64,000 nt of DNA, from sequence record MN850645.1; one strand, 5' to 3'. Below the pieces are notes generated by a model. That model did not search any database and had not been told where the DNA came from. It worked only from the letters and a program-made list of their open reading frames with translations. Made by a program: the position numbers and the translations under genes. Positions within the stretch are counted from its first letter, which is position 1, and each line of letters begins with the position of its first letter. The DNA comes from Escherichia phage outra. Below are positions 6,607-62,005 of this stretch, piece after piece.

Positions 6607-6609
6607 GTC

Positions 6610-8855: not shown

Positions 8856-8857
8856 AA

Positions 8858-9595: not shown

Positions 9596-9598
9596 CAG

Positions 9599-13576: not shown

Positions 13577-13584
13577 GGAAAATA

Positions 13585-15660: not shown

Positions 15661-15671
15661 GGATCTCTAGT

Positions 15672-32267: not shown

Positions 32268-32335
32268 TCTCCCTCCTTAAAATATTTCTAAAGTCTTAAT
32301 TTGTTAATACTGTACCACAAATTAATTGTTTTGTA

Positions 32336-32353
32336 AAGGGGCTTTCGCCCCTT
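32336..32353. terminator. GC-rich hairpin AAGGGGC-TTTC-GCCCCTT between two minus-strand genes
   Basis: 7 bp G/C stem; same element as the hairpin at 22364-22383 in inverted orientation; the downstream U-tract is weak on the minus strand and better on the plus strand. Confidence 0.45.
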
Positions 32354-36787: not shown

Positions 36788-37421
36788 TGCGAAGATCCTC
36801 CAAGGATTGTTTATATTGTTCCCAGTTTACACCAATCCCCTGTTCTTTCTCTTCTTTTGACAGATTCGCAAAAGGTAAAGGATTGTCTCCAAATACATCA
36901 TCAGGATGGATAAACGCCATAATTCGAATAGGACATGGCACGCCTTGAATACCTCGGTTCAAACCTGCCAGTGGAACGCGATGAATCCACTCTGCATCTT
37001 CATATCCATAACCGTGGGTGTATGAGCGGAAATAGCCAGCTTTCTCAATAACTGCACGGGAATACATACCAAACTGGCACATACCTAGTTCCCAAATAAC
37101 CACTTCCCCTTCAATACCTTTTACTTTATCTTTAAAGTATTCAGGCATACCAAAGAAATCCCAACCATTTTCCTTCGCCTGTTTTACAAAATATGTTTCC
37201 CAACCTTGAACAACAGGATAGCAATCATCATCAAAAATAAACCAGTAATCATACCCTTCATCATAAAACTTTTTCATCAGTTCATTACGAGCATATGCAA
37301 CACCTTTTCGCTCCCGATCATACTGTACAACAAAAGTAGCATTAGGATCAGTCACAAGATAATCTTTAAGAGGACGCTTACCTACAGTAATAACACCAAC
37401 ACCAATTTTTGTATTTTCCAA
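36735..37421 (-). CDS. glycosyltransferase, family 2-like (GT-A fold)
   Basis: 228 aa; TTG start after AAGGAG; N-terminal IGVGVITVGKR, then RKGVAYARNELMK and DxD motif FIFDDDCYP, as in GT2 enzymes. Confidence 0.65.
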   Translation of the reverse strand: MENTKIGVGVITVGKRPLKDYLVTDPNATFVVQYDRERKGVAYARNELMKKFYDEGYDYWFIFDDDCYPVVQGWETYFVKQAKENGWDFFGMPEYFKDKVKGIEGEVVIWELGMCQFGMYSRAVIEKAGYFRSYTHGYGYEDAEWIHRVPLAGLNRGIQGVPCPIRIMAFIHPDDVFGDNPLPFANLSKEEKEQGIGVNWEQYKQSLEDLRNGKTFISYEEAQKYGKS

Positions 37422-37430
37422 AATAACTCC

Positions 37431-37994
37431 TTAAATAATTTTATTCATGTCTTGACAATGTAAAAGGTGTGAAATAGCTTTTCTAGGATCATCATTACCT
37501 AAACGGTATGTGTGAAATAAATATAACCCACGTAGTAAACCTAGCCTTTTATTGTTAGCGTGCAATGCTTTAGAGAAAATTATATCAAACTGTATTGATC
37601 TTTCCTCAAAAGGGATTTCATTCCACAGACTCTTACGAAAGAGAAGAAAGAATCCTGCTAAGATAGCATCTGTAGGTACTTCCTCTATTGAGTTTCCCCA
37701 TTCTAGATGTGCTCTTTTTGCAATCTCAATGTGGTGTAGTATATTCGGATCTTCACTTCTTTCATTATTAAATAATTGATATGTTGATCCCAATCTATTA
37801 CAAGATGCACCAAGAACATCAAAATCAGGATTTGAACGGACTATTGATTCCAGCCAAGCAGGTTGTTCTGGAAGAAGAAACATTGTATCAATGTCTCTTA
37901 GGCAAATCCAACTATCTTCTGGTAAGACACTTATTGTGTCATTGATACCTTTTCCAATATCTCCAGAAAGATAGGGAGTTATGTGAAATATCAT
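37431..37994 (-). CDS. putative glycosyltransferase (DxD-containing), first gene of the GT block
   Basis: 187 aa; contains ICLRDIDTMF; GGAGGG RBS; assignment is weak and rests mainly on context. Confidence 0.3.
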   Translation of the reverse strand: MIFHITPYLSGDIGKGINDTISVLPEDSWICLRDIDTMFLLPEQPAWLESIVRSNPDFDVLGASCNRLGSTYQLFNNERSEDPNILHHIEIAKRAHLEWGNSIEEVPTDAILAGFFLLFRKSLWNEIPFEERSIQFDIIFSKALHANNKRLGLLRGLYLFHTYRLGNDDPRKAISHLLHCQDMNKII

Positions 37995-38051: not shown

Positions 38052-38246
38052 CTATTGATTACGTTTTGCGAGTTCCATTTGGATAGCTAAACTGTGATCT
38101 CGTGCTTCCATATACTCTTTATACGTTTCATTAAGATGATCACGACAAACATCACGCAGTTTAATCAATTTATCTGTAGGGATACCACTAAGATCATCCC
38201 AAGATTTTACAACTTCGCCAGTATCATTGATCCCAATGGTTTTCAT
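38052..38246 (-). CDS. hypothetical small protein
   Basis: 64 aa; AAGGAGG 6 nt upstream of the ATG. Confidence 0.4.
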   Translation of the reverse strand: MKTIGINDTGEVVKSWDDLSGIPTDKLIKLRDVCRDHLNETYKEYMEARDHSLAIQMELAKRNQ

Positions 38247-38454
38247 CTACAACCTCCTTAATTGCTACAGCACAGTTTTTGCAGATACACTGCCCTTTAC
38301 CTTTAGAAATCTGGATGTAAGGTTCATTTTCATTTTCGCCCTTACGTGAGTCATATATTACAGAATTGAAGCACACAACGCAAATATTTTTTAAGATTGT
38401 ATACTTATCAACTTTCTTTTTTGTTTTAAAGTTAACTTCAATAACATCAGCCAT
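38224..38454 (-). CDS. small zinc-ribbon protein (start revised)
   Basis: Two Cys pairs (CVVC ... CICKNC); the ATG at 38454 overlaps the upstream stop (ATGA), so it is preferred over the RBS-less ATG at 38502. Confidence 0.4.
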   Translation of the reverse strand: MADVIEVNFKTKKKVDKYTILKNICVVCFNSVIYDSRKGENENEPYIQISKGKGQCICKNCAVAIKEVVDENHWDQ

Positions 38455-38742: not shown

Positions 38743-39252
38743 TTAGCGATAGAATTGATGTTCTTTGTAGCGGTACACTAGAACCATATCTTTTTCCCAG
38801 TGTGCTCTTATTGTAGATTTTTTAAAGTATAATGCTCCTTTTGTAATATCTAATGCAATTCGTAATTCTGGAAAATGCGTATCGAGATAAAGTAGACGTT
38901 CTGCTATAGTCTTAGCTTCCTTCCACTTATCACGTTCCATAACGTTGAATGTCTTTGTGTAAGAGAATTGTCCTTTTTGAAACAAAACTTCTTTTATAGT
39001 ATCAGGGAAATATGAATCTCTAGCCCTATTCAATACTACATTACCAACAGCAGACATACCTCGCTTTCCTTGATTACGACTTTCTGCATAGATTGCACAA
39101 GCTAATAGATTTTCTTTACTATCACGCTTTGTACACTTGTGAACTACTTTAGCAGTTTTTACGTTTGCAGCTTCGGCTTGCGCCACAACAGGTGTAAATG
39201 TAAAAGCAGTTAAGGATAGTAACGCAATTGCGACAAAGGTTTTTATTGACAA
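38743..39252 (-). CDS. secreted cell-wall hydrolase, SleB / Hydrolase_2-like
   Basis: N-terminal signal peptide (FVAIALLSLTAFTFTPVVAQA); core CAIYAESRNQGKRGMSAVGNVVLNRA resembles the SleB-type hydrolase signature; TTG start after TAGGAGG. Confidence 0.55.
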   Translation of the reverse strand: MSIKTFVAIALLSLTAFTFTPVVAQAEAANVKTAKVVHKCTKRDSKENLLACAIYAESRNQGKRGMSAVGNVVLNRARDSYFPDTIKEVLFQKGQFSYTKTFNVMERDKWKEAKTIAERLLYLDTHFPELRIALDITKGALYFKKSTIRAHWEKDMVLVYRYKEHQFYR

Positions 39253-39315
39253 ACTTGCCTCCTATTTTGTTAAACGAACTTTTATTGTAACACAGAAGAG
39301 GCTGTTTTGCAAGTG

Positions 39316-39334
39316 GAGGGGGATTATCCCCCTC
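39316..39334 (-). terminator. GC-rich hairpin (GAGGGGG-ATAAT-CCCCCTC); weak terminator or processing site
   Basis: Perfect 7 bp G/C stem between minus-strand genes; no clear U-tract. Confidence 0.35.
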
Positions 39335-39344
39335 TTACACCCTG

Positions 39345-39999: not shown

Positions 40000-40596
40000 T
40001 TACTCGAACCAATCGTCGCCAGCGCCAAACGCTTTAACTACATCATAAATGTCAAGTCCAGCTTTACCTACACCATATGCTTTCAGTTTCCATTCGCTAT
40101 CTTCCCGCACCAGGGAGGCAACGTGGCAAATGGTATTACCTGCAAGTTCTGGAGCCAAGAAGTCAAAATCCAGCAGTTCAACGTTACGTTCATCATCGAA
40201 GATTTTAAGGAAACCTTCGGTAGCGTGACCAAGGCGTTTCTTACCCGTTTCGTCATCAATAGTGATTACGAATGCAATTTCCTGTGCTTCAGCAGAGATA
40301 TTATCCAGTGTAACATCAATCTGCTCCATTTGTCCTACACCGTCACGAACATCTTCACCTGCAAAAGTAGAACGTTCAGGATCAAATTTCTGTGCGTAGC
40401 ATACCAGGTGGCGAGGAGACAACAGTTCCGGCAGACCAGATGCATTGTGTCGGCAAATCAGAGCACTAACATCCAGATCCAGTTTTTCGTTAGATTTCCA
40501 AGAGAATTCCAGACGAATGCGTTTCAGTGCTGGTGCAATCTTTTTCAGAGAAACTTTTTCGCTAGAACCTTTTTTCAGGGAAATTTTCTGAGTCAT
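40000..40596 (-). CDS. terD: TerD-domain protein (tellurite resistance / stress protein family)
   Basis: 198 aa; alignable by eye along its length to bacterial TerD (KISLKKGSSEKVSLKK / DLDVSALI / GEDVRDGVGQMEQIDVTLDNI / SEWKLKAYGVGKAGL), including the Ca-binding-type acidic motifs; RBS AAAGGAGA. Confidence 0.8.
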   Translation of the reverse strand: MTQKISLKKGSSEKVSLKKIAPALKRIRLEFSWKSNEKLDLDVSALICRHNASGLPELLSPRHLVCYAQKFDPERSTFAGEDVRDGVGQMEQIDVTLDNISAEAQEIAFVITIDDETGKKRLGHATEGFLKIFDDERNVELLDFDFLAPELAGNTICHVASLVREDSEWKLKAYGVGKAGLDIYDVVKAFGAGDDWFE

Positions 40597-40633
40597 AATT
40601 TATTATCTCCTTTGTTGTTAATTTACGTTGTCT

Positions 40634-40661
40634 ATTTTACTAATCTTTTCTACAAAGTCAA
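40634..40661 (-). promoter_or_regulatory. sigma70-like promoter upstream of terD (TTGACT-16 nt-TAAAAT)
   Basis: On the minus strand, -35 TTGACT (40661-40656) and -10 TAAAAT (40639-40634), about 35 nt upstream of the terD start. Confidence 0.5.
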
Positions 40662-40668
40662 GCGTTTT

Positions 40669-41463
40669 TTACGCTTTTGCTCCAAATTTTTTAACCCACT
40701 CGCCAAACTCTTCGGATAGCAGTTTATCGTAAAGTTCTTCGTCAGACAAGGACAAATCTGCAATACCGATAAAATCAACGTTATCGTATTCTTTTGCCAA
40801 GTCTTTCAGGAATTTAAAGTTTGCATTACCTACACCAACCATAAACCAGTAAACAGGAGTGTTGCGGTGTTTGTTCAGCAAACTACGTACTGCTGAAGTA
40901 TCCATGTTCTCCCCGTCAGTTTGGAAGAAAATCATTGCAGGAGTACGATCAACTTGTGCATCAGTATCTACAACCTGTTCTACAACAGTACGTGTAACTT
41001 CTACACGTTCTTTTTTACCAGTTAGTTTAGCAAGGAAACCCTTAGCCGGAACTTCTTCATACTCAACGACTTCGCGTGTAATATTTTTCATAGGTACACT
41101 ACCGAAGTATGTATCATAGATCTCTTGCATTACTGGAGCATAAGCTGTACCACCATTGATGCAAACATTAGACATACAAGAGCCGACATAATCATCATAT
41201 ACATCAGCCGTTGCAGGAGGCAGTTCAAAAGAAGAACTATTGAAAGCCCACATGTCAATCTGTGCATTATCATCAAACTTCATACCAAACGGCAGTAGCT
41301 TACCTACAAAATCACTAACAGTGCCATCACGATACAGCTCACACATACTACCCGAAATATCTAAGGCGCTACCGACACGAAGAACAACATCGTTAATCTT
41401 TTTCTTACGCAGAGATACGGTAAGAGTTTCTTGACGTTTTTTAAGACTGATTTTATTGGACAT
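40669..41463 (-). CDS. vWA-domain protein (TerY-like)
   Basis: 264 aa; MIDAS motif DISGSM near the N-terminus and later FQTDGEN; basic N-terminal KISLKKRQ; adjacent to terD and telA. Confidence 0.55.
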   Translation of the reverse strand: MSNKISLKKRQETLTVSLRKKKINDVVLRVGSALDISGSMCELYRDGTVSDFVGKLLPFGMKFDDNAQIDMWAFNSSSFELPPATADVYDDYVGSCMSNVCINGGTAYAPVMQEIYDTYFGSVPMKNITREVVEYEEVPAKGFLAKLTGKKERVEVTRTVVEQVVDTDAQVDRTPAMIFFQTDGENMDTSAVRSLLNKHRNTPVYWFMVGVGNANFKFLKDLAKEYDNVDFIGIADLSLSDEELYDKLLSEEFGEWVKKFGAKA

Positions 41464-41464
41464 A

Positions 41465-41734
41465 TTATTTCTCCTTTCTGAGTGTAATGTTAGTAACTTC
41501 TAAATCCACTTCTACCATTTCTGTATCATACGAAATACAGCTAAGTTGACCTCTTTGCGAACCGTTCAGACACATTGCTTGGTTTGTATTAACTTTAATA
41601 AACACTAAGTTTCTGAACGTATCTAAACCAGAATCTTGATAGGCAACATAATATACAAATGTATCACCTACGTCAAGTTCTCCAAAACATTTAGGTTCAT
41701 CTGATTTGTCGTCTTTGATATTAAATTTAAGCAC
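41465..41734 (-). CDS. hypothetical protein (GTG start)
   Basis: 89 aa; GTG at 41734 after AAGGAGGAG; overlaps the upstream gene by 8 nt. Confidence 0.35.
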   Translation of the reverse strand: MLKFNIKDDKSDEPKCFGELDVGDTFVYYVAYQDSGLDTFRNLVFIKVNTNQAMCLNGSQRGQLSCISYDTEMVEVDLEVTNITLRKEK

Positions 41735-42290
41735 TATCTCCTCCTTTACCTACTTTCCAACCTAAATAGAAAGCCTCTCTAGTGATTTTTTGCAACTCGT
41801 TTAAAGAGATAGTTACAACTAAATCATCTTCAATTTCTAGCTTTGAGTCTTCTTCTGTCTCAATGCAAGTATTATGCACTTTGTGGTAAGGATTGTCAAC
41901 ACGTTTAAATTTATTATTTTCAGTGTTGAAGAAGCAATCTGGATCTTCTTCTCCATCACCCCAACCCTGGTTAGGATCTTCTTCAGATCTTTCTGTTGGG
42001 ATCTCACCTGTAAAGTGCTCTTCTAATACCAGAGCAATCCCATCTCCAAGATCGGAAGAGAACATCAAATTACAAACTTCTTCCCAAGGCATAGACCACT
42101 TAAATCTTTTACGATTGCCATGTTTATCTTCTTCGTTAGAGAAAACACTACCATAGCTATCATAATTCCCATACATCTCTTCGACAACCTTACCACCTTT
42201 CAAAAGAAATAGGTAGCAAGGAGAGCCATCAAAAGAGGTAGAAAGAGCAGCATTACCAGACTCTTTGCACAAGAAACTAAAACACCCCAT
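41727..42290 (-). CDS. hypothetical acidic protein
   Basis: 187 aa; start coupled to the upstream stop. Confidence 0.4.
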   Translation of the reverse strand: MGCFSFLCKESGNAALSTSFDGSPCYLFLLKGGKVVEEMYGNYDSYGSVFSNEEDKHGNRKRFKWSMPWEEVCNLMFSSDLGDGIALVLEEHFTGEIPTERSEEDPNQGWGDGEEDPDCFFNTENNKFKRVDNPYHKVHNTCIETEEDSKLEIEDDLVVTISLNELQKITREAFYLGWKVGKGGDSA

Positions 42291-42490
42291 TATACACCAG
42301 CCTTAAGATCAATTAAAGCCAAAGTTGTTTCAGAGTGTGTTTGCTCGTCTACAGGTGCAGTCATATGATAATACAAAAAATCTTCGGCATCATACCAATC
42401 TGATTCTTGACCTTGTTTCCAACCATCAATGAAAGCATCTTCCATAATGGTTTGCAATTCTTCACGAGTTAAGTGAATATCTTTACTCAT
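42290..42490 (-). CDS. hypothetical small protein
   Basis: 66 aa; translationally coupled on both sides. Confidence 0.4.
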   Translation of the reverse strand: MSKDIHLTREELQTIMEDAFIDGWKQGQESDWYDAEDFLYYHMTAPVDEQTHSETTLALIDLKAGV

Positions 42491-42696
42491 TACACATTCT
42501 CCTCTTTTACCAATTCCATCGTTGAATTGTCAAAACCATCTTTAGAAGAATAGGTATAGACAGAACGTAGTTCTCGCAGGACAGTGAATACATTAGGATC
42601 ATCTAACCAAGCATCCTGGAGGAGAACATAACGATCTTCATTATCATACTGAACAGCAATCATAGAACCAGACAGTTTGTAAATTTTAATATTCAT
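42490..42696 (-). CDS. hypothetical small protein (start revised)
   Basis: The ATG at 42696 has AAGGAGA 8 nt upstream and lies after the telA stop; the track start at 42723 is a GTG inside that RBS. Confidence 0.4.
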   Translation of the reverse strand: MNIKIYKLSGSMIAVQYDNEDRYVLLQDAWLDDPNVFTVLRELRSVYTYSSKDGFDNSTMELVKEENV

Positions 42697-42709
42697 AATA
42701 TATTTCTCC

Positions 42710-43813
42710 TTAAAGTAGACCACGTTTAACAGTTTGAATCATACCATCTTCAAGAGATTGCACTTCTTGAATGTAATCAATACGAGCAGCACGGGCTTCA
42801 GTGTTGATTCGGTTAGTTTCTTCCAACATTTTAACCAAGTTTTCTTGATCACGACGTAATGTTTCAATATCCAATACTTGACGATTAGCAAGTTGTGTAG
42901 CTTCAATTTGGTTTTGTGCAGCCAAATCACTACCCATTGCAATCGCAGCATTAAATTCATTTAGTACATTGTTCTGTGTATCGGCTGCTTTCTTCTGGCG
43001 TAGACTTTCAATATACATAGAAAAGTTTGCAGAGTAAGCAGGGATAACATTATTCACAATATTACGGGCTGATCGCATCAAACTTGCAGATACTTTCTGC
43101 ATACTTTGTACACGTGGCCCCATCTGAACACATAGTAAGCGTAAGGCTTTCAGGTCTGCAATACGAATTTCAAGCAGATCCATAGTATCACGAGTACGTT
43201 GACGCTCTTCTACCTCATTTTCAGGCAGTGTATTAAGGCGAATTTCTTCTTTTTCATAAGTAGCTGTTAGAAGCTCTATATCCCTGTTTAAACTAAGGGC
43301 ATATTTTGCAATAGCCTCTTCTAAACGTTGCAGATATCGTAAAGAATCTTCTTCTTTTTTCAAGTCTGTTTGGAGTGTCTTTACCAAACCTTCAATACGG
43401 TTATTGATGGTGTCAAATTCTCCAAACAAATCTTCTTTCATACCTAAAACTTTCTTAACTAGTTTACCTAAACCTTTAGATTGTTTAATAGAGTTAGGAT
43501 CAAGTTGCTTTGCTTGCTTAATAAGCGCAGTTAAACGTTCACTCATTTCATCTCCCTGAGATGAACGCTGGTGTTTAAGCACTTCAGCATTAAGGTTACG
43601 AAGAGTAAGTCCTGCATCAGCACCAACCTGTTCAATCTCTTCACGAGACATTGGAGGCAGCATTTGTACAGGTCGTGCAACAGCAGGGGCATATACAGGA
43701 CTTGCATCCATAGCAGTTGGAGCAAACAAAGACTTACTTTTTTCTGTTGTTGCCGTGAATACACTCATTTCAGACGGTTTGCTTTTTACGGCACTGATAA
43801 AAGGACTGGACAT
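42710..43813 (-). CDS. telA: TelA-like toxic-anion-resistance protein
   Basis: 367 aa, predominantly helical coiled-coil with the size and architecture of TelA/KlaB/YaaN-family proteins; GGAGGAAA RBS; flanked by terD/vWA and terC. Confidence 0.5.
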   Translation of the reverse strand: MSSPFISAVKSKPSEMSVFTATTEKSKSLFAPTAMDASPVYAPAVARPVQMLPPMSREEIEQVGADAGLTLRNLNAEVLKHQRSSQGDEMSERLTALIKQAKQLDPNSIKQSKGLGKLVKKVLGMKEDLFGEFDTINNRIEGLVKTLQTDLKKEEDSLRYLQRLEEAIAKYALSLNRDIELLTATYEKEEIRLNTLPENEVEERQRTRDTMDLLEIRIADLKALRLLCVQMGPRVQSMQKVSASLMRSARNIVNNVIPAYSANFSMYIESLRQKKAADTQNNVLNEFNAAIAMGSDLAAQNQIEATQLANRQVLDIETLRRDQENLVKMLEETNRINTEARAARIDYIQEVQSLEDGMIQTVKRGLL

Positions 43814-43861
43814 TCAATTTCCTCCATATTCTTTAGTAGATGGTGATACTTCTATACCACC

Positions 43862-43889
43862 ATCATAACACAAGTTAAGTATTAAACAA
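43862..43889 (-). promoter_or_regulatory. candidate sigma70-like promoter upstream of telA (TTGTTT-16 nt-TATGAT)
   Basis: -35 at 43889-43884 and -10 at 43867-43862 on the minus strand, about 45 nt upstream of the telA ATG. Confidence 0.35.
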
Positions 43890-44733
43890 ACATATCTAAA
43901 TAATTTGTAGTAATAAATGCTCCATCTGCTTCCAGATTAACATAACCCGTGGTATTAGCAGTTAAGAAATCCAGATCGAAGGACTCTTTAACACCCCGTA
44001 CCTCAACACGAGAGATATCGAATACAGGTAGTGTAACAGCCTCTTCGTGCAATACCGTACCTTTGTAGGTTGCCTTAATGATAAACTTGATATTACCCGT
44101 TCCAGCATCATACAAAACACTTTCAAACCCTTTGAGAGTATATTTATCACCAGAAGTGAAGTGCAAAGTTGCTTTGTTTACAGTACGTTTTTTACGAGGA
44201 GTTCCTTTCACACGTTTATGATCACTACGTTTTTTGTATTTAGGAATGAATACAAACGATACACTCTCAAGAAAGGTATCAACATCAAGGATTTTAATAT
44301 CCTCTGTTGCAGCAAATTTTGAAGTCGTTGCATCAAAATGCTTTTCCCTGCGATCATACATAAAGATATCAAACCGATCTTCTAAATCAAACAAATTATG
44401 TATTTTAATTTCAGAATGCTTGCGCATTGCAGCAACCTTGAACTCTTCAAAACGTGGGTGTTCTACAAGTTCTTCAAGTTTTACACCAAAGACAGTATAT
44501 TGCTTCGAAGTCTTTTCTGGTGTTGGCATTACAGAAGCATAATCACCGATTGCGCTCTTAAAGCAAAATTGTTCTTGACCTGTATTTTTACCAACGAATT
44601 TACAGTATTCGTCATTGTGCATACTTTCCTTGGTAGTACCAACAAACTCAAAACCATCTTTATTCTTCTCAAGAATTTCTTGATTAAAGATCCAACCTTC
44701 CAGGCGATACACTTTACCAACTTCTAGTTTCAT
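43882..44733 (-). CDS. hypothetical protein
   Basis: 283 aa; AAGGAGA 5 nt upstream; no motif recognised. Confidence 0.4.
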   Translation of the reverse strand: MKLEVGKVYRLEGWIFNQEILEKNKDGFEFVGTTKESMHNDEYCKFVGKNTGQEQFCFKSAIGDYASVMPTPEKTSKQYTVFGVKLEELVEHPRFEEFKVAAMRKHSEIKIHNLFDLEDRFDIFMYDRREKHFDATTSKFAATEDIKILDVDTFLESVSFVFIPKYKKRSDHKRVKGTPRKKRTVNKATLHFTSGDKYTLKGFESVLYDAGTGNIKFIIKATYKGTVLHEEAVTLPVFDISRVEVRGVKESFDLDFLTANTTGYVNLEADGAFITTNYLDMFV

Positions 44734-44768
44734 CTGTTTCTCCTTCTTATTTAATCTGTATTAAATTA

Positions 44769-45359
44769 TTAACGACGACGTGAGCTACTAAAACTACGTT
44801 TCGACGAAGAATAACTTTTCGAAGACTTACTATAAGAGCTAATAGGACTTGAGTAAGACTTACGAGCAGAGTAATCACTATTCACTTTTGTTGTTGATGG
44901 GCGTGAATACGTTTGTACACTTTGCTGCTTAATTGTGTTTTGTTTAGTGGTTGTATATGTATTCCCTTGTTTATCATAAAACCTATGCTTTTGTGTTGTA
45001 TATGCTTTACTATTAGTTGTAGGAGCAGCGTTGTTATTGATAATTGTTGTATTGCTACCGCCATCTCTATAACCACCACCGCCACTATTACCACTCAACA
45101 TATGACCAAGAAGCATACCTGTAGCAAACTCACCTACGCCAGAAGAACCACTGCCGCCTCCTTGCACAACAACTGTTGAAGGTTGTGCAGGTGCTGCTTG
45201 AACAACTTGAGGTGCAGGCTGATTTACATATTGTTCATCTACCATCTGATTTGGTGTTTGTTGGTAACGTTGATTTTGTACATTTTCAGAATCATCACAA
45301 CCTACCAGCAATGCACTACCTAAAACAACTGCAACAATAAAAGATTTAATGTTTTTCAT
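44769..45359 (-). CDS. lipoprotein with glycine-zipper motif and Ser/Tyr/Lys-rich basic C-terminus
   Basis: Start revised to the ATG at 45359 (GAGAGGG 7 nt upstream); signal peptide with lipobox LLVGC; GGGSGSSGVGEFATGMLLGHMLSGNSGGGG resembles glycine-zipper outer-membrane lipoproteins. Confidence 0.5.
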   Translation of the reverse strand: MKNIKSFIVAVVLGSALLVGCDDSENVQNQRYQQTPNQMVDEQYVNQPAPQVVQAAPAQPSTVVVQGGGSGSSGVGEFATGMLLGHMLSGNSGGGGYRDGGSNTTIINNNAAPTTNSKAYTTQKHRFYDKQGNTYTTTKQNTIKQQSVQTYSRPSTTKVNSDYSARKSYSSPISSYSKSSKSYSSSKRSFSSSRRR

Positions 45360-45552
45360 TTGTAACCCTCTCATTTAAAATCTCAACACAATTTTTAAAA
45401 TCCCTAGAGAAACAATACATCTGTTCTCCGTTCCTGTTGATAGTAATTGTATGGTTATCAATATATGTTGTCAAGATAAAAATCAAACAAAACAAACCTA
45501 GAGCAAAACAAATATTTTCAAACAGAATCCAAAGAACACGTAAAACCACCAT
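45346..45552 (-). CDS. small membrane protein
   Basis: 68 aa; one strongly hydrophobic N-terminal helix; GAGGTG RBS just downstream of the terC terminator. Confidence 0.35.
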   Translation of the reverse strand: MVVLRVLWILFENICFALGLFCLIFILTTYIDNHTITINRNGEQMYCFSRDFKNCVEILNERVTNEKH

Positions 45553-45561
45553 CAGATCACC

Positions 45562-45583
45562 TCAATAAAGCCCCCGAAGGGGC
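45562..45583 (-). terminator. rho-independent terminator after terC
   Basis: Hairpin GCCCC-TTCG-GGGGC followed on the minus strand by TTTATTG. Confidence 0.55.
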
Positions 45584-45591
45584 TTAATGAA

Positions 45592-46569
45592 TTAAGCAAC
45601 AGCCTGGTCTTCTTTTTCAGGGAAGATTAAACTTGCAAGAACACCCAGCCCAAGAGTACCTAACACAATATACATACTGATCGTCGGGTCAATGTGTGCT
45701 GGCAGGAAACTCACTTTTGCGTGCAGAGTTTCTGCAAACGGGTGATACATCAGTTTTACACCCACAAACACCAGGACTACGATAACTGCTTTCTCCAGAT
45801 GAACCAAATACTTCAGTGCAACACTAAGAACAAAGAACAGAGCACGTAAACCTAAGATTGCACAGAGCATCGAAGAGAACACCAGCAGAGGTTCTTGTGT
45901 CACTGCAATTACTGCTGGAACAGAGTCTACTGCAAAGATTACGTCAACCATTTCCATTACAAACACACAAACCAGAGCCGGAGTTGCTACACGAACACCA
46001 TTTTTGATTGTGAAGAACTTCTCACCATCCATCTGATCAGATACAGGGAACAGCTTACGAACAATGCGAGTAGCCCAGTGTTTAGAGTAATCAACTTCTG
46101 CATCATTATCTCCAGCGAATACCATTTTAGCCGCACAGAAAAGGATGACAGCACCGAAGAAGATATTAACATACCAGCCCAAACTCAACAAGTAAGTACC
46201 TACTGCTACAAACACACCTCGGAAGACAATCGCACCTGCAATACCCCAAAGTAGAATCTTGTGCTGCAAGTGTGTGCTTTTAATACCAAAACTTGCGAAT
46301 ACTGCTACAAATACTACTAAGTTATCTACAGAAAGAGATTTCTCCAACACATACCCACTCAAGAACAAGCTCGCAAAATCAGCACCGTGTTGGAAGTATA
46401 CAAAACCATAGTAGGCTAATGATACCCCAATCCAGAAAATTGACCAGCCAATTGCAGATTTAAATGAAATTTCTTTGTTTTCTCTGTGTCCAAAGAAGTC
46501 AATACAAATCGACAAGACTAAAATACCCACTAAAACAACCACATCAATAATTGGGAAACCCAGTTGCAT
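45592..46569 (-). CDS. terC: TerC-family integral membrane protein
   Basis: 325 aa; multiple TM helices; EKSLSVDNLVVFVAVF matches the TerC-family signature; RBS AAAGAGGAG. Confidence 0.75.
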   Translation of the reverse strand: MQLGFPIIDVVVLVGILVLSICIDFFGHRENKEISFKSAIGWSIFWIGVSLAYYGFVYFQHGADFASLFLSGYVLEKSLSVDNLVVFVAVFASFGIKSTHLQHKILLWGIAGAIVFRGVFVAVGTYLLSLGWYVNIFFGAVILFCAAKMVFAGDNDAEVDYSKHWATRIVRKLFPVSDQMDGEKFFTIKNGVRVATPALVCVFVMEMVDVIFAVDSVPAVIAVTQEPLLVFSSMLCAILGLRALFFVLSVALKYLVHLEKAVIVVLVFVGVKLMYHPFAETLHAKVSFLPAHIDPTISMYIVLGTLGLGVLASLIFPEKEDQAVA

Positions 46570-46587
46570 TCTTTTCTCCTCTTTAAT

Positions 46588-46606
46588 GCGGAGGACAATC
46601 CTCCGC
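46588..46606 (-). promoter_or_regulatory. stem-loop in the terC 5' leader (GCGGAGG-ATTGT-CCTCCGC)
   Basis: Perfect 7 bp G/C stem between a predicted promoter and the terC RBS; no U-tract. Confidence 0.4.
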
Positions 46607-46618
46607 TCTATGTCTTAT

Positions 46619-46646
46619 ACTATAAACTGTTTTTAAAGAAAGTCAA
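46619..46646 (-). promoter_or_regulatory. sigma70-like promoter upstream of terC (TTGACT-16 nt-TATAGT)
   Basis: -35 at 46646-46641 and -10 at 46624-46619 on the minus strand. Confidence 0.45.
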
Positions 46647-46895
46647 CTAGTTCAGTTCTGTAATTTTAAGTTTATCTTCTTTGTTAATGACAGGGAAAGC
46701 TACAGCATCACCTACGTCATCAATAAAGCAAATAGCAAGACCACCTTCCACTTTGCTGATTTGACCATTAAAGGCGTGATACGGGGCAGGAACTTGATCT
46801 CCATCTTCAAGGAGAATAGCCTCGTAAACCTTGCCGATAGTACAATCACGAGTGTTTCTAAATTTTTCAAGCACTTCAACATTTACTTTACGCAT
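46647..46895 (-). CDS. hypothetical protein
   Basis: 82 aa; GAGAGGA 8 nt upstream. Confidence 0.4.
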   Translation of the reverse strand: MRKVNVEVLEKFRNTRDCTIGKVYEAILLEDGDQVPAPYHAFNGQISKVEGGLAICFIDDVGDAVAFPVINKEDKLKITELN

Positions 46896-46909
46896 ATAAA
46901 AATCCTCTC

Positions 46910-47116
46910 TTATTTGTTAGATTGAAAGATACCACGAAGTACCGCAAGAATGAACGTCACACAGACTACACTCCAAAACGTTACAGGAACATGATGCCAG
47001 TCTAAGCCGATAATGTCAATCATATAGTTGTATGCTAAAAGCAGTAGCCAACTAGGGATTAACACAATCAAAAACACAACAATAAAACAACCTAATACTG
47101 CTAAAACACCTGCCAT
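46910..47116 (-). CDS. small membrane protein (two TM helices)
   Basis: 68 aa; AAGGAGA 5 nt upstream; two hydrophobic helices. Confidence 0.45.
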   Translation of the reverse strand: MAGVLAVLGCFIVVFLIVLIPSWLLLLAYNYMIDIIGLDWHHVPVTFWSVVCVTFILAVLRGIFQSNK

Positions 47117-47125
47117 ACTTTCTCC

Positions 47126-47842
47126 TTATTTCAGTTTGTAAACAATTACATTTAAACCTTTGTTTACTAGAGTTTCTTCGATCATAAGTTTTACAATACT
47201 CCAAGAACCTCCAGCCAAACCACAACCAAGCATTGGTAAACCTACAATTTTACCGCCTGAAGATACAACATCGTCTCCCATACTATCTAACGCATTGTAG
47301 ATAGCTTCATAATTCAGGTCACGCTTACCTTCCTCACGACGACTATAACCATATTGTCCATATAAATTATAAATTGTCAAATTGTTTTCTATATATTTGG
47401 TAAACGTACCTAATTTTTTATAATCACCATGTTTAGTGGCACAATCTGCTTTAAACGCACCAGGCCACTTGCTTTTAATTTTTGGTGCAATACCACTACC
47501 CATAGTGCAAAAACAGTTACAGCAGTGTGCTATAGCGTCTATATCGCCTCTCTCGGCTGCTGCTAAAAGATCACCGTATACCTCAATGATACCTGCCGGA
47601 TAACTTGTTACAATTTCATCTTCCCAATACATTTTCTCTACACCACCGATCAGTGCAAAGTTTTGTGTAATGCGATCATCAATATAGTTAAGACCTGAAA
47701 CATACACAGCATATTCATCCTGTGCTGTAATACCTTGTACACGAATTCTTAAGACACCATCTTTATCTGTTGCTACACGCCCAAAATCTTTTTCTGTAAT
47801 ATTGGTGATAGGATCTCCGAAAGTCATTACTTTATTAGACAT
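47126..47842 (-). CDS. macrodomain protein, TARG1/DarG-type ADP-ribosyl hydrolase candidate, with extra N-terminal domain
   Basis: C-terminal ~150 aa match TARG1-type macrodomains (GDLL...AIAHCCNCFCTMGSGIAPKIKSKWP ... LGCGLAGGSWSIVKLMIEE ... VIVYKL). Start revised to the ATG at 47842 (AAAGGGG 6 nt upstream, overlapping the upstream stop). Confidence 0.7.
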   Translation of the reverse strand: MSNKVMTFGDPITNITEKDFGRVATDKDGVLRIRVQGITAQDEYAVYVSGLNYIDDRITQNFALIGGVEKMYWEDEIVTSYPAGIIEVYGDLLAAAERGDIDAIAHCCNCFCTMGSGIAPKIKSKWPGAFKADCATKHGDYKKLGTFTKYIENNLTIYNLYGQYGYSRREEGKRDLNYEAIYNALDSMGDDVVSSGGKIVGLPMLGCGLAGGSWSIVKLMIEETLVNKGLNVIVYKLK

Positions 47843-48692
47843 AATAATCCCCTTTAACATTAGATTTGTTGATAATGTTGCTTTCAAAAAATTGACGTAG
47901 GAAATCAAAGTTCTCTTTATATTTTTCAATGTTATTGTAGCCTTCTGCAAGGCAACCAAAGAACAGTTGTTCTACATAATACAAAGGAAGCTGTGAAAGT
48001 GCAATTTTAAAATCAACTTCGCTTTGACTCATTAGATACTTAATAGGACGAACCAAACATTTAGCATCAGTTTCTTGTTTAATCATTTTAATAAAAGCTG
48101 CCAGGTTATTGATATAGTTGAAGTTAAGTGCAGCTTCGGTATTGGCTTCTGTACCTTCATACTTTGCAAAGTACAGGAAAAACGTATCGTTTTCAACACC
48201 TTCTTTGTCTAAAATTTCAATAAGTTTTTCTTCGTGCGTTCCTGTAATATTAACATCATCAATGAAAATCAGAGTTTTATTACCCCAGAAATCACGATTG
48301 ATAGAGAAAGTGTCACCATCGATCAAAGCCTTACGATCTTCTTTGCTAAGAAATCCATAATCATTGATATAGCTCACTTTACGATGAACGATATCCCACT
48401 CCACTGCTTTACCTCCTTTGATAGAGATTAGGTAGTTGAGGTGATCTACAAAATGTTCAGATAACACTGTAGCTGCATTTTTCACATAGTTATATGGAGA
48501 TGGAATAACAACAAAACTTTCATTTACCAGTCGTTCTTCATACTTGGAAAAGAAACTTTCAGCCAGAATGCGCCCCATTCTTTTTGCTGCCTGGTTACTA
48601 CCAAACTTTAGCTTGGAATAATCTGCAATGTTAAATTTTGCTTCCTTCAGGTTAGTAAAAGTATTAGCAAAATGTTGAATTTGATTACGCAT
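47835..48692 (-). CDS. phosphoribosyltransferase (PRTase type I fold) protein with C-terminal extension
   Basis: 285 aa; PRPP-binding-loop-like motif LIFIDDVNITGTHE; AAGAGGAA RBS; start overlaps the HAD gene by 8 nt. Confidence 0.55.
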   Translation of the reverse strand: MRNQIQHFANTFTNLKEAKFNIADYSKLKFGSNQAAKRMGRILAESFFSKYEERLVNESFVVIPSPYNYVKNAATVLSEHFVDHLNYLISIKGGKAVEWDIVHRKVSYINDYGFLSKEDRKALIDGDTFSINRDFWGNKTLIFIDDVNITGTHEEKLIEILDKEGVENDTFFLYFAKYEGTEANTEAALNFNYINNLAAFIKMIKQETDAKCLVRPIKYLMSQSEVDFKIALSQLPLYYVEQLFFGCLAEGYNNIEKYKENFDFLRQFFESNIINKSNVKGDYYV

Positions 48693-49341
48693 TAATAAGT
48701 TCCTCTTTTTTAAGTTTAGCCAACAAGTCTTCTGGATTAATAATATGACAGAACTTCATCCCTATGTCAACAGCTTTTCCATCATAGATCAAACTATCTC
48801 CAACGTGTAAGATCTCCTCTGGTGCGAGATCAAACGTTACCATTTCATCAAAAGAGAGTTTAAAAAACCTAGGATCTGGTTTACACAAGCAAAACTCGTC
48901 AGAAAAATGCATAAAGTCGAATGGTAATTTTGTCAAGCCAGAATATACAGCTAAAAAACTACCAGGTACAAAATTAGTATTGCTTTTAATACTCAAAGAA
49001 TAGGTTGAACTTAGCTCTTCCAACTTCTTGCAAAGTTCAGGGTTTAATGTTGGAGGATGTTTTATAAACATTGCTAAACAGTCTCTTTTTAACCCATCTA
49101 CTTTATCAAGATCAATGTTCAAACGAGCAGAAAGTGTTTCCCAAGCATTTCTAGATGTTCCACAAATGCCTTTTTCTGCTTTTAAATCCAGGAGAGTTTT
49201 TACCTCTTTATATACGGTAGCTGCTTCTACCTCAGAACAAGAGGCATACTCGGCAATAACCTTGTTGCGTTCTTCTGCATACAAAGGATTAGCAGTAATA
49301 AGAGTATTCCATACATCAAAAGAAATATGCTTAACAGTCAT
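48685..49341 (-). CDS. HAD-superfamily hydrolase (phosphatase / nucleotidase-like)
   Basis: Start revised to the ATG at 49341 (GGAGGA 6 nt upstream); motif I FDVWNTL (Asp+2 replaced by Trp) and motif IV HVGDSLIYDGKAVDIGM. Confidence 0.5.
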   Translation of the reverse strand: MTVKHISFDVWNTLITANPLYAEERNKVIAEYASCSEVEAATVYKEVKTLLDLKAEKGICGTSRNAWETLSARLNIDLDKVDGLKRDCLAMFIKHPPTLNPELCKKLEELSSTYSLSIKSNTNFVPGSFLAVYSGLTKLPFDFMHFSDEFCLCKPDPRFFKLSFDEMVTFDLAPEEILHVGDSLIYDGKAVDIGMKFCHIINPEDLLAKLKKEELINA

Positions 49342-58657: not shown

Positions 58658-59048
58658 CATAAATATCCTCCCAAATCCAATAATCATCTGTGTAAGTAGG
58701 ATGCCTTTTATCCCACTCTGCTCTAGCCCAAGCAACCGCTGCTACCAACACATCACCATGACAAGGTTGAGGTGCGCAGAAGCAAACTAAGTCTTTCCCT
58801 TCTAATTCTAACAAATCCTCAAGAGTGATTTTACCACAACGAATTTGTTCCCACAACCACTCTTTATATCTTTGTATAGTTGACCCTCGTGGTTCATCAT
58901 CCTTTAACTTAAAAGGATTTGCAAACTTTGAGGCTTTTAACCCCATATGAGGCATAGCTCTGCCAATGTAAACTGCACCTTCAGGTATTACTTTACCTAA
59001 GTGGTAAAAATTTAATACTTTCATATTAACCCAAACACATCTGTGCAA
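58638..59048 (-). CDS. DUF4326-like protein
   Basis: Conserved block GKDLVCFCAPQPCHGDVL; the track start is a TTG at 59048, and an ATG at 59024 directly after the upstream stop is an alternative. Confidence 0.45.
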   Translation of the reverse strand: MHRCVWVNMKVLNFYHLGKVIPEGAVYIGRAMPHMGLKASKFANPFKLKDDEPRGSTIQRYKEWLWEQIRCGKITLEDLLELEGKDLVCFCAPQPCHGDVLVAAVAWARAEWDKRHPTYTDDYWIWEDIYEDYTRN

Positions 59049-59376
59049 TCAAGCCCTGTATAAATTTATTAGCTTCTTTACTGTCGTAGTCAGTCTCTTC
59101 TGGATATCCATCTTCATCGTACACAACTGTACCTTCAATATACCCTGCCTCAATTAAGGCGCGGATCATATCAAATTGCCAGCATGAGTTACCAAATGGA
59201 CGTTTACCATTAAAACACTCTTCTTCTCTCCATAACGTAGAGAGTAGTTGTCGGAAATATTCCCGTACAGTGACAGTACCAAGATCTGAATCCTCAAACA
59301 TAACATCCAGGGCATCAGGATTGCTTTTCTCTACGTAAGGAATATATTTAACACCATTAATAGTTACATCAAGCAT
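59026..59376 (-). CDS. hypothetical protein
   Basis: 116 aa ORF, start adjacent to the upstream stop. Confidence 0.4.
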   Translation of the reverse strand: MLDVTINGVKYIPYVEKSNPDALDVMFEDSDLGTVTVREYFRQLLSTLWREEECFNGKRPFGNSCWQFDMIRALIEAGYIEGTVVYDEDGYPEETDYDSKEANKFIQGLIAQMCLG

Positions 59377-60726: not shown

Positions 60727-60993
60727 CTAATTACTGTTAGATCTGTACTCTGTCTTCCATTCACAATGGTAAACTTCAACAGGTTCTAACTTCCAGTGTT
60801 CAGGAACTAGTTCAGGACAATATCTACAAAAGAGAAATAGATAGATAACTAAGACAGGTATTAAATAGTAAAATGGTATACGATCATAACCATACTTACG
60901 AGATAACATGTAGACATATAGATAGGGTATAACAATTAATCCTATAACTATAAGTAAGAAGAGAAGTATAAACCTTAGTGTAGTAACATCCAT
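60727..60993 (-). CDS. small membrane protein (two TM helices)
   Basis: 88 aa; AGGAGA 5 nt upstream; hydrophobic LRFILLFLLIVIGLIVIPYLYVYM and LIPVLVIYLFLF. Confidence 0.45.
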   Translation of the reverse strand: MDVTTLRFILLFLLIVIGLIVIPYLYVYMLSRKYGYDRIPFYYLIPVLVIYLFLFCRYCPELVPEHWKLEPVEVYHCEWKTEYRSNSN

Positions 60994-61862: not shown

Positions 61863-62005
61863 ACTCGCCCCTTAGTGATTATTTGACCAGCTAAACAAAT
61901 AGCTTGTAGTACAATAAAGAAGTAGCCTAATTTTACACTACCCAATACCCAGAATGCAATGTTTGCAAACAAACAAAAAGCAATATTAAGTCTAAAGAAT
62001 AACAT
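61859..62005 (-). CDS. small hydrophobic membrane protein (48 aa), not in the ORF track
   Basis: ATG at 62005 after AAGGGG and right after the upstream stop; translation MLFFRLNIAFCLFANIAFWVLGSVKLGYFFIVLQAICLAGQIITKGRV; its stop overlaps the next ATG (ATGA). Confidence 0.45.
   Translation of the reverse strand: MLFFRLNIAFCLFANIAFWVLGSVKLGYFFIVLQAICLAGQIITKGRV

Follow-up and report, generated by a model that had tools for sequence, protein, structure and literature searches.

The gene under study is a SleB/CwlJ-family (Hydrolase_2) coding sequence at positions 38743..39252 of the window, which comprises 64,000 nucleotides of the Escherichia phage outra record (MN850645.1). It lies on the minus strand, a detail absent from an earlier sequence-only reading of this DNA. 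The assignment draws on the open reading frame (ORF) list and on sequence, Pfam, PHROG, PDB, and fold matches. The predicted protein of 169 amino acids runs from a TTG start codon (39250..39252, minus strand) to a stop codon at 38743-38745. The TTG codon is identical in 9/9 aligned relatives (rV5 has GTG) and is preceded, with 5 nt in between, by a strong AGGAGG Shine-Dalgarno sequence (39258..39263, minus strand) that was read from the sequence and whose motif is likewise found in all nine. The source phage is a phi92-like coliphage of the genus Justusliebigvirus. Its block surrounding the gene is 99.7% identical to that of phage ESCO8, a close relative that differs from the window by a tail-spike swap and an indel. 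Exact look-up of the window protein returned no identical sequence on record, and the relatives P0001 and P0017 were used instead.

The gene resides in a strand block of replication and nucleotide metabolism genes. The sequence-only reading had described this block as early/replication; the location in a replication block holds, while "early" is a statement of position only. That reading had also placed the gene far from the structural module and without an adjacent holin. Both points agree with the present analysis: the closest tail gene extends to about 25,800, ~13 kb away and on the opposite strand, and the flanking ORFs on both sides contain no transmembrane segment. Small membrane ORFs elsewhere in the window (45346-45552, 46910-47116, 60727-60993, and 61859-62005) had been put forward, by size only, as holin or pinholin candidates; they do possess one or two hydrophobic segments, but none matched a holin family. 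Upstream of the gene are Ter-like neighbors (TerC, TelA, vWA-TerF, and TerD), and the order vWA-TerF, TerD, a 200-aa ORF, Hydrolase_2 is retained even in a relative of only 61% identity. The 200-aa ORF was considered as a diverged TerD paralog, and the similarity looked for was not found.

Profile, fold, and catalytic residue all place the protein in the Hydrolase_2/SleB-CwlJ family. Residues 61-168 matched positions 2-100 of the 100-position Pfam profile PF07486 (E=7.5e-20, 71.9 bits; curated cut-off, 27 bits). PHROG 938, labeled "endolysin," was also matched (E=2e-20), as were the sequences of the SleB catalytic domains 4F55 and 4FET. No other Pfam domain was matched outside Hydrolase_2 in the 169-aa sequence, giving a single-domain protein. 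The AlphaFold2 model had a mean pLDDT of 83.5, with values of at least 90 for 122 residues. When this model was compared with the PDB using Foldseek, SleB (4FET, 4F55) provided the only significant matches (probability 1.0; TM 0.73-0.77 on target length). Alignment to 4F55/4FET assigns the catalytic glutamate to E57 in YAESR (codon GAA, 39082..39084, minus strand), opposite the glutamate in YGESRGE of SleB; this residue is invariant in 18 relatives. The Bacillus SleB catalytic domain (4F55, 4FET) therefore shares the Pfam family, the fold, and the catalytic Glu within a Y-x-E-S-R motif. The two nonetheless share 23% identity, the N-terminal peptidoglycan-binding domain of SleB was not detected here, and ours is a protein from a phage of a Gram-negative host. 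An assignment as a SleB ortholog sensu stricto, i.e., a spore cortex-lytic enzyme, was rejected on the same missing domain and because a coliphage host is not a spore-former. By homology to SleB, the enzyme would be a lytic transglycosylase that cleaves glycan strands via Glu57. Given that SleB requires muramic delta-lactam and that the E. coli wall does not contain it, SleB substrate chemistry is not simply transferable, and the specificity must differ.

The N-terminus of the protein reads MSIK / TFVAIALLSLTAFTF / TPVVAQA|EA. Codons 1-26 (MSIKTFVAIALLSLTAFTFTPVVAQA; 39175..39252, minus strand) encode a predicted signal peptide of tripartite n/h/c organization ending in Ala-x-Ala, with cleavage predicted before E27. 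The n-region is positively charged, the hydrophobic core spans 15 residues (Kyte-Doolittle 12-residue means peak at 2.47), Pro stands at -6, and Ala-x-Ala occupies -3/-1. Gly in the hydrophobic core, a lipobox, and a twin-Arg motif are all absent from the N-terminus, and residues 1-32 are unstructured in the AlphaFold2 model (pLDDT <50). The call was made by sequence rules and family comparison. The same n/h/c and Ala-x-Ala pattern recurs in unrelated sequence in rV5 gp002 (VKIKIFAIILSAFLSLPVVA|AP) and T5-like S131 gp072 (…FSFSSQA|S), as well as in most top family representatives, and the core is unusually well kept within the subfamily as LLSLTAFTFTP. For the CB7_83 homolog, a signal peptide has been described, together with toxicity upon expression in E. 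coli ("data not shown") (PMC7344957). A study of the related O177 phages detected no signal peptides but offered no detail; other statements in that work look unreliable, and it was given no weight (PMC10698182). We thus predict a Sec/signal peptidase I signal peptide of textbook pattern and cleavable appearance. A preprotein would be made and then exported by Sec, and signal peptidase I would cleave after Ala26 (VAQA|EA) to leave a basic 16.8-kDa protein free in the periplasm. The predicted mature periplasmic enzyme (38746..39174, minus strand) comprises 143 amino acids with a pI of 9.7; Cys40 and Cys52 are nearly invariant and probably form a disulfide. Two proposals of the sequence-only reading are borne out by these results: a SleB/Hydrolase_2-type core, by the HMM search (PF07486, 71.9 bits) and the SleB fold match, and a cleavable-looking signal peptide, by the rule-based n/h/c pattern and Ala-x-Ala site across relatives.

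Upstream of the gene, a 92-bp region is conserved across nine relatives. It contains a sigma-70-type promoter (39284..39312, minus strand) composed of TTGCAA, a 17-nt spacer, and TACAAT; an extended -10 TG is found at 39291-39292, and transcription is predicted to start near 39277. The promoter is conserved as TTGCAA, 17 nt, and TAnAnT with the TG, and the positions that are invariant in the nine relatives are the functional ones, namely TTGCAA, the TG at -15/-14, T-12, A-11, and T-7. Since promoter and terminator scans showed no enrichment over shuffles in the region, the promoter call rests on this cross-phage conservation. The promoter resembles the hairpin-plus-extended -10 promoter that precedes the DNA polymerase gene, and sigma-70-like sites are present in both strand blocks of the window. 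Just past the upstream gene lies a GC-rich hairpin, GAGGGGGAtaaTCCCCCTC (39316..39334, minus strand), whose stem is kept in 8/9 relatives while its sequence differs. As no U-tract follows, the hairpin is probably a weak terminator or 3'-end stabilizer.

The promoter spacer carries an anti-Shine-Dalgarno segment, GCCTCTT (39296..39302, minus strand), with AGGAGGC as its predicted partner in read-through transcripts. This feature was assessed by RNA folds, shuffled spacers, and RNAalifold. Because MAFFT places the Shine-Dalgarno sequence one column out of register in two rows of the nine-relative alignment, each leader was folded separately. In the minimum-energy fold of 8/9 relatives, a CU-rich spacer segment (GCCUCU or CCUCC variants) base-pairs with the Shine-Dalgarno sequence. 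Across all nine, the Shine-Dalgarno sequence had an unpaired probability of 0.00-0.10 in read-through RNA versus 0.14-0.59 when the RNA began at the gene's own transcription start. The leader fold had a z-score of -3.75 versus shuffles, and the gene ranked first of 78 window genes in Shine-Dalgarno occlusion; shuffled-spacer tests of the anti-Shine-Dalgarno pairing were moderately significant only (p = 0.001-0.12). Both helices were retained in the RNAalifold consensus with 0 compensatory pairs; the Shine-Dalgarno sequence and start codon are invariant, so covariation lends the gate no support. An Rfam scan of the leader returned a sub-threshold chance match only. A second copy of the promoter/anti-Shine-Dalgarno pattern was sought in the window and not found, the full pattern occurring once only.

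Precedent for such an arrangement exists in phage T4, where the ribosome-binding sites (RBSs) of the lysozyme gene e, soc, 49, and I-TevI are hidden in a helix of upstream-derived transcripts, and a promoter within the 5' arm yields shorter, translatable transcripts (PMC3014915). The locus studied here shares with gene e, at the level of prediction, both an RBS occluded in read-through RNA and a promoter overlapping the 5' arm, and we predict a gate of the gene e type. The two systems differ in that the internal promoters in T4 are late and the gated enzyme is the cytoplasmic endolysin, whereas here a predicted gate would act on an exported enzyme behind a host sigma-70 extended -10-like promoter. 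A gate with the anti-Shine-Dalgarno embedded in the promoter itself appears not to have been reported previously. Read-through transcripts would fold with the Shine-Dalgarno sequence and start codon paired to the anti-Shine-Dalgarno and to the -35 region of the internal promoter. Transcripts from that promoter alone would lack the inhibitory arm and be translatable, from a weak TTG start. The dose of the exported enzyme would be limited at the RNA level in this way, given that a holin cannot hold back a wall-cutting enzyme that is exported.

Beyond the window, we examined the lysis genes of ESCO8, the closest complete genome. Next to its terminase, ESCO8 encodes a cytoplasmic T4-type lysozyme (Pfam Phage_lysozyme), which has no hydrophobic N-terminus, and an Rz/Rz1 spanin pair, in which Rz has an N-terminal transmembrane segment and Rz1 a lipobox. 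With that lysozyme present, the SleB-like protein counts as a second muralytic enzyme. Among GenBank phages with at least 95% nucleotide identity, the lysozyme was found in 55 records and the SleB-like gene in 54, with each gene tallied separately; the near-equal counts suggest that the two travel together in the genus. A pairing of two lytic enzymes is known in the literature for the subfamily (PMC12210895; PMC10793346), and the enzyme treated in the KPP-1 endolysin paper is the lysozyme-type rather than the SleB-like one.

A similar division is apparent in rV5-like phages. The rV5 gp002, CB7_83, and Bas54 bas54_0065 proteins share 34-41% full-length identity with the SleB-like protein. The rV5-like "cell wall hydrolase" resembles it in length (about 165-170 aa), signal peptide, H-x-C … L-A-C cysteine pair, and Hydrolase_2 core. 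Its gene also lies outside the lysis and structural modules and has a non-ATG start, and a separate lysozyme-type endolysin with spanins is encoded next to the terminase. The immediate contexts differ: an intrinsic terminator precedes the rV5 and Bas54 genes, which start with GTG, overlap the rIIA start, and have no embedded promoter, whereas the gene here follows Ter-like genes, starts with TTG, and has its own conserved promoter with an anti-Shine-Dalgarno. In CB7, a two-transmembrane holin-like ORF overlaps the SleB-like homolog (PMC7344957). The rIIA-start overlap in rV5 and Bas54 and the holin-like ORF overlap in CB7 are lysis links that suit a helper role.

Essentiality data are available for Bas54, in which bas54_0065 is equated with rV5 gp002 by annotation, length, and gene order. 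In published HIDEN-SEQ transposon data, bas54_0065, an rV5-like homolog ~40% identical to our protein, from another subfamily and with a different upstream region, was scored as "Non-essential," with 32/36 TA sites disrupted (bioRxiv 10.1101/2025.11.20.689424, supplementary file 9). The T4-type endolysin bas54_0202 was scored as "Essential," with 0/24 TA sites disrupted (bioRxiv 10.1101/2025.11.20.689424). In a supplementary resampling comparison from the same work, bas54_0065 showed no significant change (log2FC -0.88, p=0.50). A second phage Tn-seq preprint covers no phage of relevance here.

More broadly, the SleB-like family accounts for 1148 phage records; more than a thousand sequenced phages that infect Gram-negative bacteria have a member. 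T5-like and PaP1-like phages have a Hydrolase_2 family member among their early or middle genes, and T5-like phages possess a complete, separate lysis cassette. An earlier, non-lytic role is equally compatible with the sigma-70-type promoter in the replication block, the Ter-like synteny, and the occurrence of family members in T5-like phages. Our literature search found no enzymatic, export, or lysis experiment on any SleB-like enzyme of a Gram-negative phage.

The explanation that we tentatively favor, with confidence just short of even, is that the gene encodes an accessory, dispensable helper of the SleB family, exported by Sec and throttled at the RNA level, and not the main endolysin. 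The main endolysin role would fall to the cytoplasmic, holin-dependent T4-type lysozyme, acting with the Rz/Rz1 spanins encoded elsewhere. For the SleB-like enzyme, access to the wall would need no holin; its most likely action is to weaken the sacculus, or to help dismantle it, around the time of lysis.

A possible, though on balance unlikely, competitor to the helper role is a non-lytic periplasmic effector, in which the secreted lytic transglycosylase is produced in small amounts during the replication phase. Such an effector would introduce nicks into the sacculus or remodel it, liberate anhydro-muropeptides, or work with the neighboring Ter-like envelope module, and its effect may be specific to certain hosts or growth states. 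The location in the replication block, behind a sigma-70-type promoter resembling that of the DNA polymerase gene, speaks for this role, as do the Ter-linked gene order kept at 61% identity (vWA-TerF, TerD, 200-aa ORF, Hydrolase_2), the early or middle position of family members in T5-like and PaP1-like phages, and the dispensability of the Bas54 counterpart for plaque formation. However, we found no functional tie between Ter-like genes and wall hydrolases, and the rV5-like gene adjoins rIIA/rIIB rather than Ter-like genes. The hiding of the RBS in read-through RNA also resembles the T4 block on early synthesis of a lysis enzyme, and the CB7 homolog is both reported as toxic and overlapped by a holin-like ORF.

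The sequence-only reading had raised the prospect of holin-independent lysis timing, which would make the protein the principal secreted endolysin. A signal peptide on a muralytic fold, the "endolysin" label in many GenBank records, and the absence of an adjacent holin are what such an enzyme would present. The secreted endolysin Lys44 of oenophage fOg44 carries a cleavable signal peptide and is its phage's endolysin. Our protein is like Lys44 in having a cleavable Sec-type signal on a phage muralytic enzyme, and hence export without a holin, but unlike it in being accompanied by a separate cytoplasmic lysozyme and in having a dispensable Bas54 counterpart. With a soluble T4-type lysozyme and Rz/Rz1 in ESCO8, near-equal record counts of both enzymes, and a Bas54 counterpart that is non-essential where the T4-type endolysin is essential, holin-independent timing is unsupported as the main lysis route, and we regard it as improbable.

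Also improbable, and marginally more so, is the previously suggested signal-anchor-release (SAR) endolysin, in which the N-terminal helix would stay uncleaved and hold the enzyme, inactive, at the inner membrane until a pinholin dissipates the membrane potential. The SAR domains of P1 Lyz and phage 21 R21 are Gly/Ala-rich and uncleaved. What our protein shares with them is a hydrophobic N-terminal segment engaging Sec, and export that is independent of a holin. Thr, Ser, and Ala in the core (45% G/A/S/T), its unusual conservation as LLSLTAFTFTP within the subfamily, and the small membrane ORFs elsewhere in the window are also compatible with a SAR domain. Unlike SAR endolysins, however, the protein has no Gly in its N-terminus and has a conserved Ala-x-Ala site, and these differences make the assignment unlikely. 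Nearly all relatives keep both the Pro at -6, which breaks a helix, and a small-x-small site despite a variable c-region, and about 10-15 poorly structured residues lie between the cleavage site and the folded domain. A pinholin candidate was found neither next to the gene nor by match to a known family, and the G/A/S/T composition and hydrophobicity failed to separate SAR domains from ordinary signal peptides.

Use during entry, also entertained in the sequence-only reading, is highly improbable: a peptidoglycan hydrolase in a myovirus invites comparison with the tail lysins that such phages often carry to pierce the wall at DNA entry, but a Sec signal would remove the protein from the cytoplasm, where virions assemble, ~13 kb separate the gene from the tail module, which is on the opposite strand, a recent whole-virion phi92 structure paper never mentions hydrolase, lysozyme, or peptidoglycan, and Bas54 has a separate "cell wall hydrolase protein" annotated within its baseplate/tail-fiber module (bioRxiv 10.1101/2025.11.20.689424).

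The SleB-like protein is already annotated in relatives, and its signal peptide has already been noted for rV5-like relatives. The "endolysin" label that it carries in databases is probably misleading. Phages of the phi92-like and rV5-like groups are broad-host-range candidates for phage therapy whose lysis systems are scattered in the genome and poorly defined. Accessory status for this enzyme accordingly matters when genomes are annotated, when enzymes are chosen as enzybiotics, and when lysis timing is engineered. At the level of the family, it is conceivable, if rather unlikely, that these widespread, lab-dispensable, Sec-exported proteins are dosed periplasmic effectors rather than lysis enzymes, or that they are needed only where the T4-type lysozyme is insufficient, as in stationary-phase or encapsulated cells. 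Were they periplasmic effectors, the promoter-embedded anti-Shine-Dalgarno gate would set their dose and timing. The predicted gate, if true, would be a second independent case of the T4 lysozyme trick, this one in phages unrelated to T4 and governing an enzyme that is exported.

The protein encoded at 38743-39252 (minus strand; 169 aa) belongs to the Hydrolase_2 (SleB/CwlJ) family by profile, fold, and active-site residue. A search against the Hydrolase_2 HMM, proposed as a check in the sequence-only reading, returned a Pfam match at E=7.5e-20, and PHROG 938 ("endolysin") also matches the protein. The SleB catalytic domains 4F55 and 4FET match it by sequence and are the only significant PDB fold matches of its AlphaFold2 model (mean pLDDT of 83.5; below 50 for residues 1-32). 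The SleB Glu aligns with Glu57 of the YAESR motif, a residue that does not vary among 18 relatives. The SleB-type core anticipated earlier is thus borne out; strict orthology to SleB is not, owing to the lack of a peptidoglycan-binding domain and of a spore context. The TTG codon located 5 nt after AGGAGG is the only sensible start because the next in-frame Met is residue 66, past the active site.

The N-terminus reads MSIK, TFVAIALLSLTAFTF, and TPVVAQA, followed by EA at the putative cleavage site. It opens with a positively charged n-region, continues through 15 hydrophobic core residues, and carries Pro at -6 and an Ala-x-Ala motif at -3/-1; inspection of this segment found no Gly, lipobox, or twin-arginine motif. 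The Escherichia coli OmpA signal peptide likewise ends in VAQA. The strongest support for a signal peptide comes from comparing N-termini across the family: the same three-part pattern, in unrelated sequence, begins the rV5 homologue, a T5-like homologue, and most top family representatives. On this sequence pattern, the cleavable-looking signal peptide described in the sequence-only reading is confirmed. The predicted mature enzyme has 143 residues, a mass of 16.8 kDa, and a pI of 9.7, and its C40 and C52 are nearly invariant, consistent with an oxidizing compartment.

By megablast, the region matched Escherichia phage vB_EcoM_ESCO8 (ESCO8) and ~55 near-identical phages of Justusliebigvirus, which are phi92-like members of the subfamily Stephanstirmvirinae. 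Whole-window comparison identified a close relative of ESCO8 rather than ESCO8 itself, with 99.7% identity over 29571-64000 and 98.5% over 1-15640. At ~15640-15672, the window lacks ~2.5 kb holding one ESCO8 tail-spike gene (ESCO8 127867-130380), and a 449-bp indel lies at 29571; these differences indicate a separate phi92-like isolate with another set of receptor-binding proteins. Counterparts of the hydrolase gene are ESCO8_00218 ("putative cell wall hydrolase") and phi92 gp170; elsewhere, the gene is recorded as "endolysin" or "hypothetical protein."

ESCO8, the closest complete genome, encodes a canonical lysis set outside the region corresponding to the window, in which neither lysozyme nor Rz was found. 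The lysozyme, ESCO8_00075 (ESCO8 37222-37722; 166 aa; Pfam Phage_lysozyme), has an N-terminus like that of T4 lysozyme, with no hydrophobic segment. It is mislabeled "baseplate hub" in ESCO8 and ESCO32, evidently because of its likeness to the T4 gp5 lysozyme domain, and "endolysin" in the BASEL records; the ESCO8 gene is free-standing and far from the baseplate genes. Beside the ESCO8 terminase, an Rz-like i-spanin with an N-terminal transmembrane segment overlaps an Rz1-type lipoprotein bearing a lipobox. Matches of at least 95% identity number 55 phage records for the lysozyme gene and 54 for the SleB-like gene; these counts, compared as totals rather than as record lists, suggest that the two genes travel together in the genus. 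For the phi92-like group, annotations or publications already cover the gene, the family to which it is assigned, and its occurrence alongside a lysozyme, including the statement that phages of the subfamily carry two lytic proteins, Phage_lysozyme and Hydrolase_2 (PMC12210895; PMC10793346).

The SleB-like family is widespread, with tblastn retrieving 1148 phage records. Across their full length, signal region included, homologues from rV5-like phages are 34-41% identical to the hydrolase, whereas those from T5-like phages are ~35% identical over the core. Members also occur in PaP1-like phages of Pseudomonas and in other phages, and the closest clusters beyond the subfamily are likewise phage-derived. 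Hydrolase_2 is among the dominant catalytic domains of lysins from phages of Gram-negative hosts (PMC8223927), and our literature search turned up no biochemical work on any SleB-like enzyme of such a phage. For the sister subfamily, a signal peptide is already published: CB7_83 of Pectobacterium phage CB7, with homologues throughout the Vequintavirinae genera, is a SleB-like protein that carries one, is overlapped by a two-transmembrane holin-like ORF, and was toxic upon expression in E. coli ("data not shown") (Buttimer et al., PMC7344957).

The function of the family is addressed most directly by a HIDEN-SEQ transposon map made for the rV5-like phage Bas54 (bioRxiv 10.1101/2025.11.20.689424). 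Its SleB-like gene, bas54_0065, was disrupted at 32 of 36 TA sites and is classed as non-essential (supplementary file 9); the supplementary resampling table shows no significant shift for it (log2FC -0.88, p=0.50). The T4-type endolysin gene bas54_0202 was disrupted at 0 of 24 TA sites and is classed as essential (supplementary file 9). In rV5-like phages, the SleB-like gene directly follows an intrinsic terminator, has a GTG start, and shares 4 nt with the beginning of rIIA (rV5 3940-4500; Bas54 58858-59358), suggesting translational coupling to the rIIA/rIIB membrane-integrity genes. No gene is annotated as rIIA or rIIB in ESCO8.

Upstream of the hydrolase gene lies a 92-bp gap (39253-39344) that is conserved in Justusliebigvirus, Phapecoctavirus, and more distant metagenomic relatives, which encode proteins only 61-78% identical. 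On the minus strand, it contains a GC hairpin (39316-39334), whose stem is kept in eight of nine relatives while its sequence varies, and a sigma-70-type promoter (39284-39312; TTGCAA, 17 nt, TACAAT, with an extended -10 TG). The invariant promoter columns are exactly the functionally critical ones: TTGCAA, TG at -15/-14, T-12, A-11, and T-7. Within the promoter spacer is a CU-rich anti-Shine-Dalgarno segment, GCCTCT here and CCTCCCTCC or GCTCCTCC in relatives; the Shine-Dalgarno sequence AGGAGGC and the TTG start are identical in all nine. In the predicted fold of the read-through RNA (-34.7 kcal/mol; z-score of -3.75 versus shuffles), the spacer segment pairs with the Shine-Dalgarno sequence and the -35 hexamer with the start codon. 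The former pairing recurs in the minimum-energy fold of eight of the nine relatives and exceeds chance relative to shuffled spacers (p = 0.001-0.12 per sequence). The Shine-Dalgarno sequence is predicted to be unpaired with a probability of 0.00-0.10 in the read-through RNA versus 0.14-0.59 in RNA from the predicted start of the gene's own promoter, and this initiation region is the most occluded among 78 window genes. RNAalifold recovers both leader helices with no compensatory changes, since both the Shine-Dalgarno sequence and the start codon are invariant. A conserved translational gate thus appears to be embedded in the hydrolase promoter, a feature for which we found no earlier report. 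In T4, long early transcripts of the lysozyme gene e, soc, 49, and I-TevI hide the ribosome-binding site, and promoters inside the 5' arm yield translatable transcripts (Uzan and Miller 2010, PMC3014915). As predicted from folds, the hydrolase leader would follow the gene e design in its pairing and in the placement of its promoter. The rV5 homologue is arranged otherwise, with its terminator immediately upstream, but similarly avoids ATG.

The leader of the DNA polymerase gene (32279-32353, minus) shares this layout, with a GC hairpin followed by an extended -10 promoter (TTTACA, 17 nt, TACAGT, TG), but no anti-Shine-Dalgarno segment in the spacer. The TerC leader (46570-46646, minus) has a promoter-like TTGACT, 16 nt, TATAGT, then a perfect hairpin, GCGGAGGAttgTCCTCCGC, which holds Shine-Dalgarno-like and anti-Shine-Dalgarno-like sequences just before the real ribosome-binding site and may be another translational control element. 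A near-consensus sigma-70 promoter in the tail gene block (6609-6640, plus; TTGACA, spacer, TGaTAAAAT) directly follows an intrinsic terminator. Promoters of host type thus occur beyond the replication block as well, so their sequence by itself is no guide to when genes of this phage are expressed.

The hydrolase gene lies in a long minus-strand block shared with DNA polymerase, primase-helicase, and ribonucleotide reductases. Immediately upstream are a 200-aa ORF and a Ter-like module (~40000-48700, minus) of TerD, vWA-TerF, TelA, TerC, a Macro-domain protein, and PRTase_3. This is a tellurite-resistance-type envelope module, carried here by a virulent coliphage. Phapecoctavirus and a metagenomic relative with only 61% identity both retain the order vWA-TerF, TerD, (ORF), Hydrolase_2. 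In the same region, a 196-aa ORF (44769-45359, minus), beginning MKNIKSFIVAVVLGSALLVGC, has a lipoprotein signal with a lipobox and adjoins a small single-transmembrane ORF (45346-45552). Downstream of the hydrolase gene are three small soluble ORFs, then several glycosyltransferases; the 76-aa ORF two genes downstream (38224-38454, minus) has two C-x-x-C-type motifs (CVVC and CICKNC), suggesting a zinc-ribbon protein, and its sole match is a PHROG family of unknown function. No ORF flanking the hydrolase gene has a transmembrane segment, in agreement with the reported lack of an adjacent holin. The four small ORFs proposed as holin candidates (45346-45552, 46910-47116, 60727-60993, and 61859-62005) each have one or two hydrophobic segments, but searches of Pfam and PHROGs linked none of them to a holin family.

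The observed family, fold, catalytic residue, signal-peptide pattern, second lysis set, and upstream conservation frame a proposed mechanism. The preprotein would be exported by Sec and cleaved after Ala26; the basic mature enzyme would fold in the periplasm, probably with a C40-C52 disulfide, and cleave glycan strands as lytic transglycosylases do. Export puts the enzyme beyond the control of a holin; its dosage would be curbed by three other features, namely a weak or leaky terminator hairpin, translational silencing of read-through RNA, and the TTG start. The reported toxicity of the CB7 homologue is consistent with this.

We judge the role of the hydrolase to be accessory; our tentative preference, short of an even chance, is that it assists in taking the sacculus apart at about the time of lysis. 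Gating logic like that of T4, the rIIA overlap in rV5 and Bas54, the holin-like ORF overlap in CB7, and dispensability in Bas54 favor this reading. Its main rival, possible yet distinctly less probable, is a non-lytic periplasmic role in the replication phase, perhaps linked to the neighboring Ter-like module or needed only on certain hosts. The hydrolase may work as secreted signal-peptide endolysins do, but it is improbable as the principal enzyme of that kind: ESCO8 has a lysozyme and Rz/Rz1, and the Bas54 homologue is non-essential, so holin-independent lysis timing, advanced earlier as an implication, is not supported. A signal-anchor-release endolysin is slightly less probable still, the N-terminus not matching that class on sequence criteria. 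A virion lysin is very improbable. The "endolysin" label is probably a misnomer for the gene.
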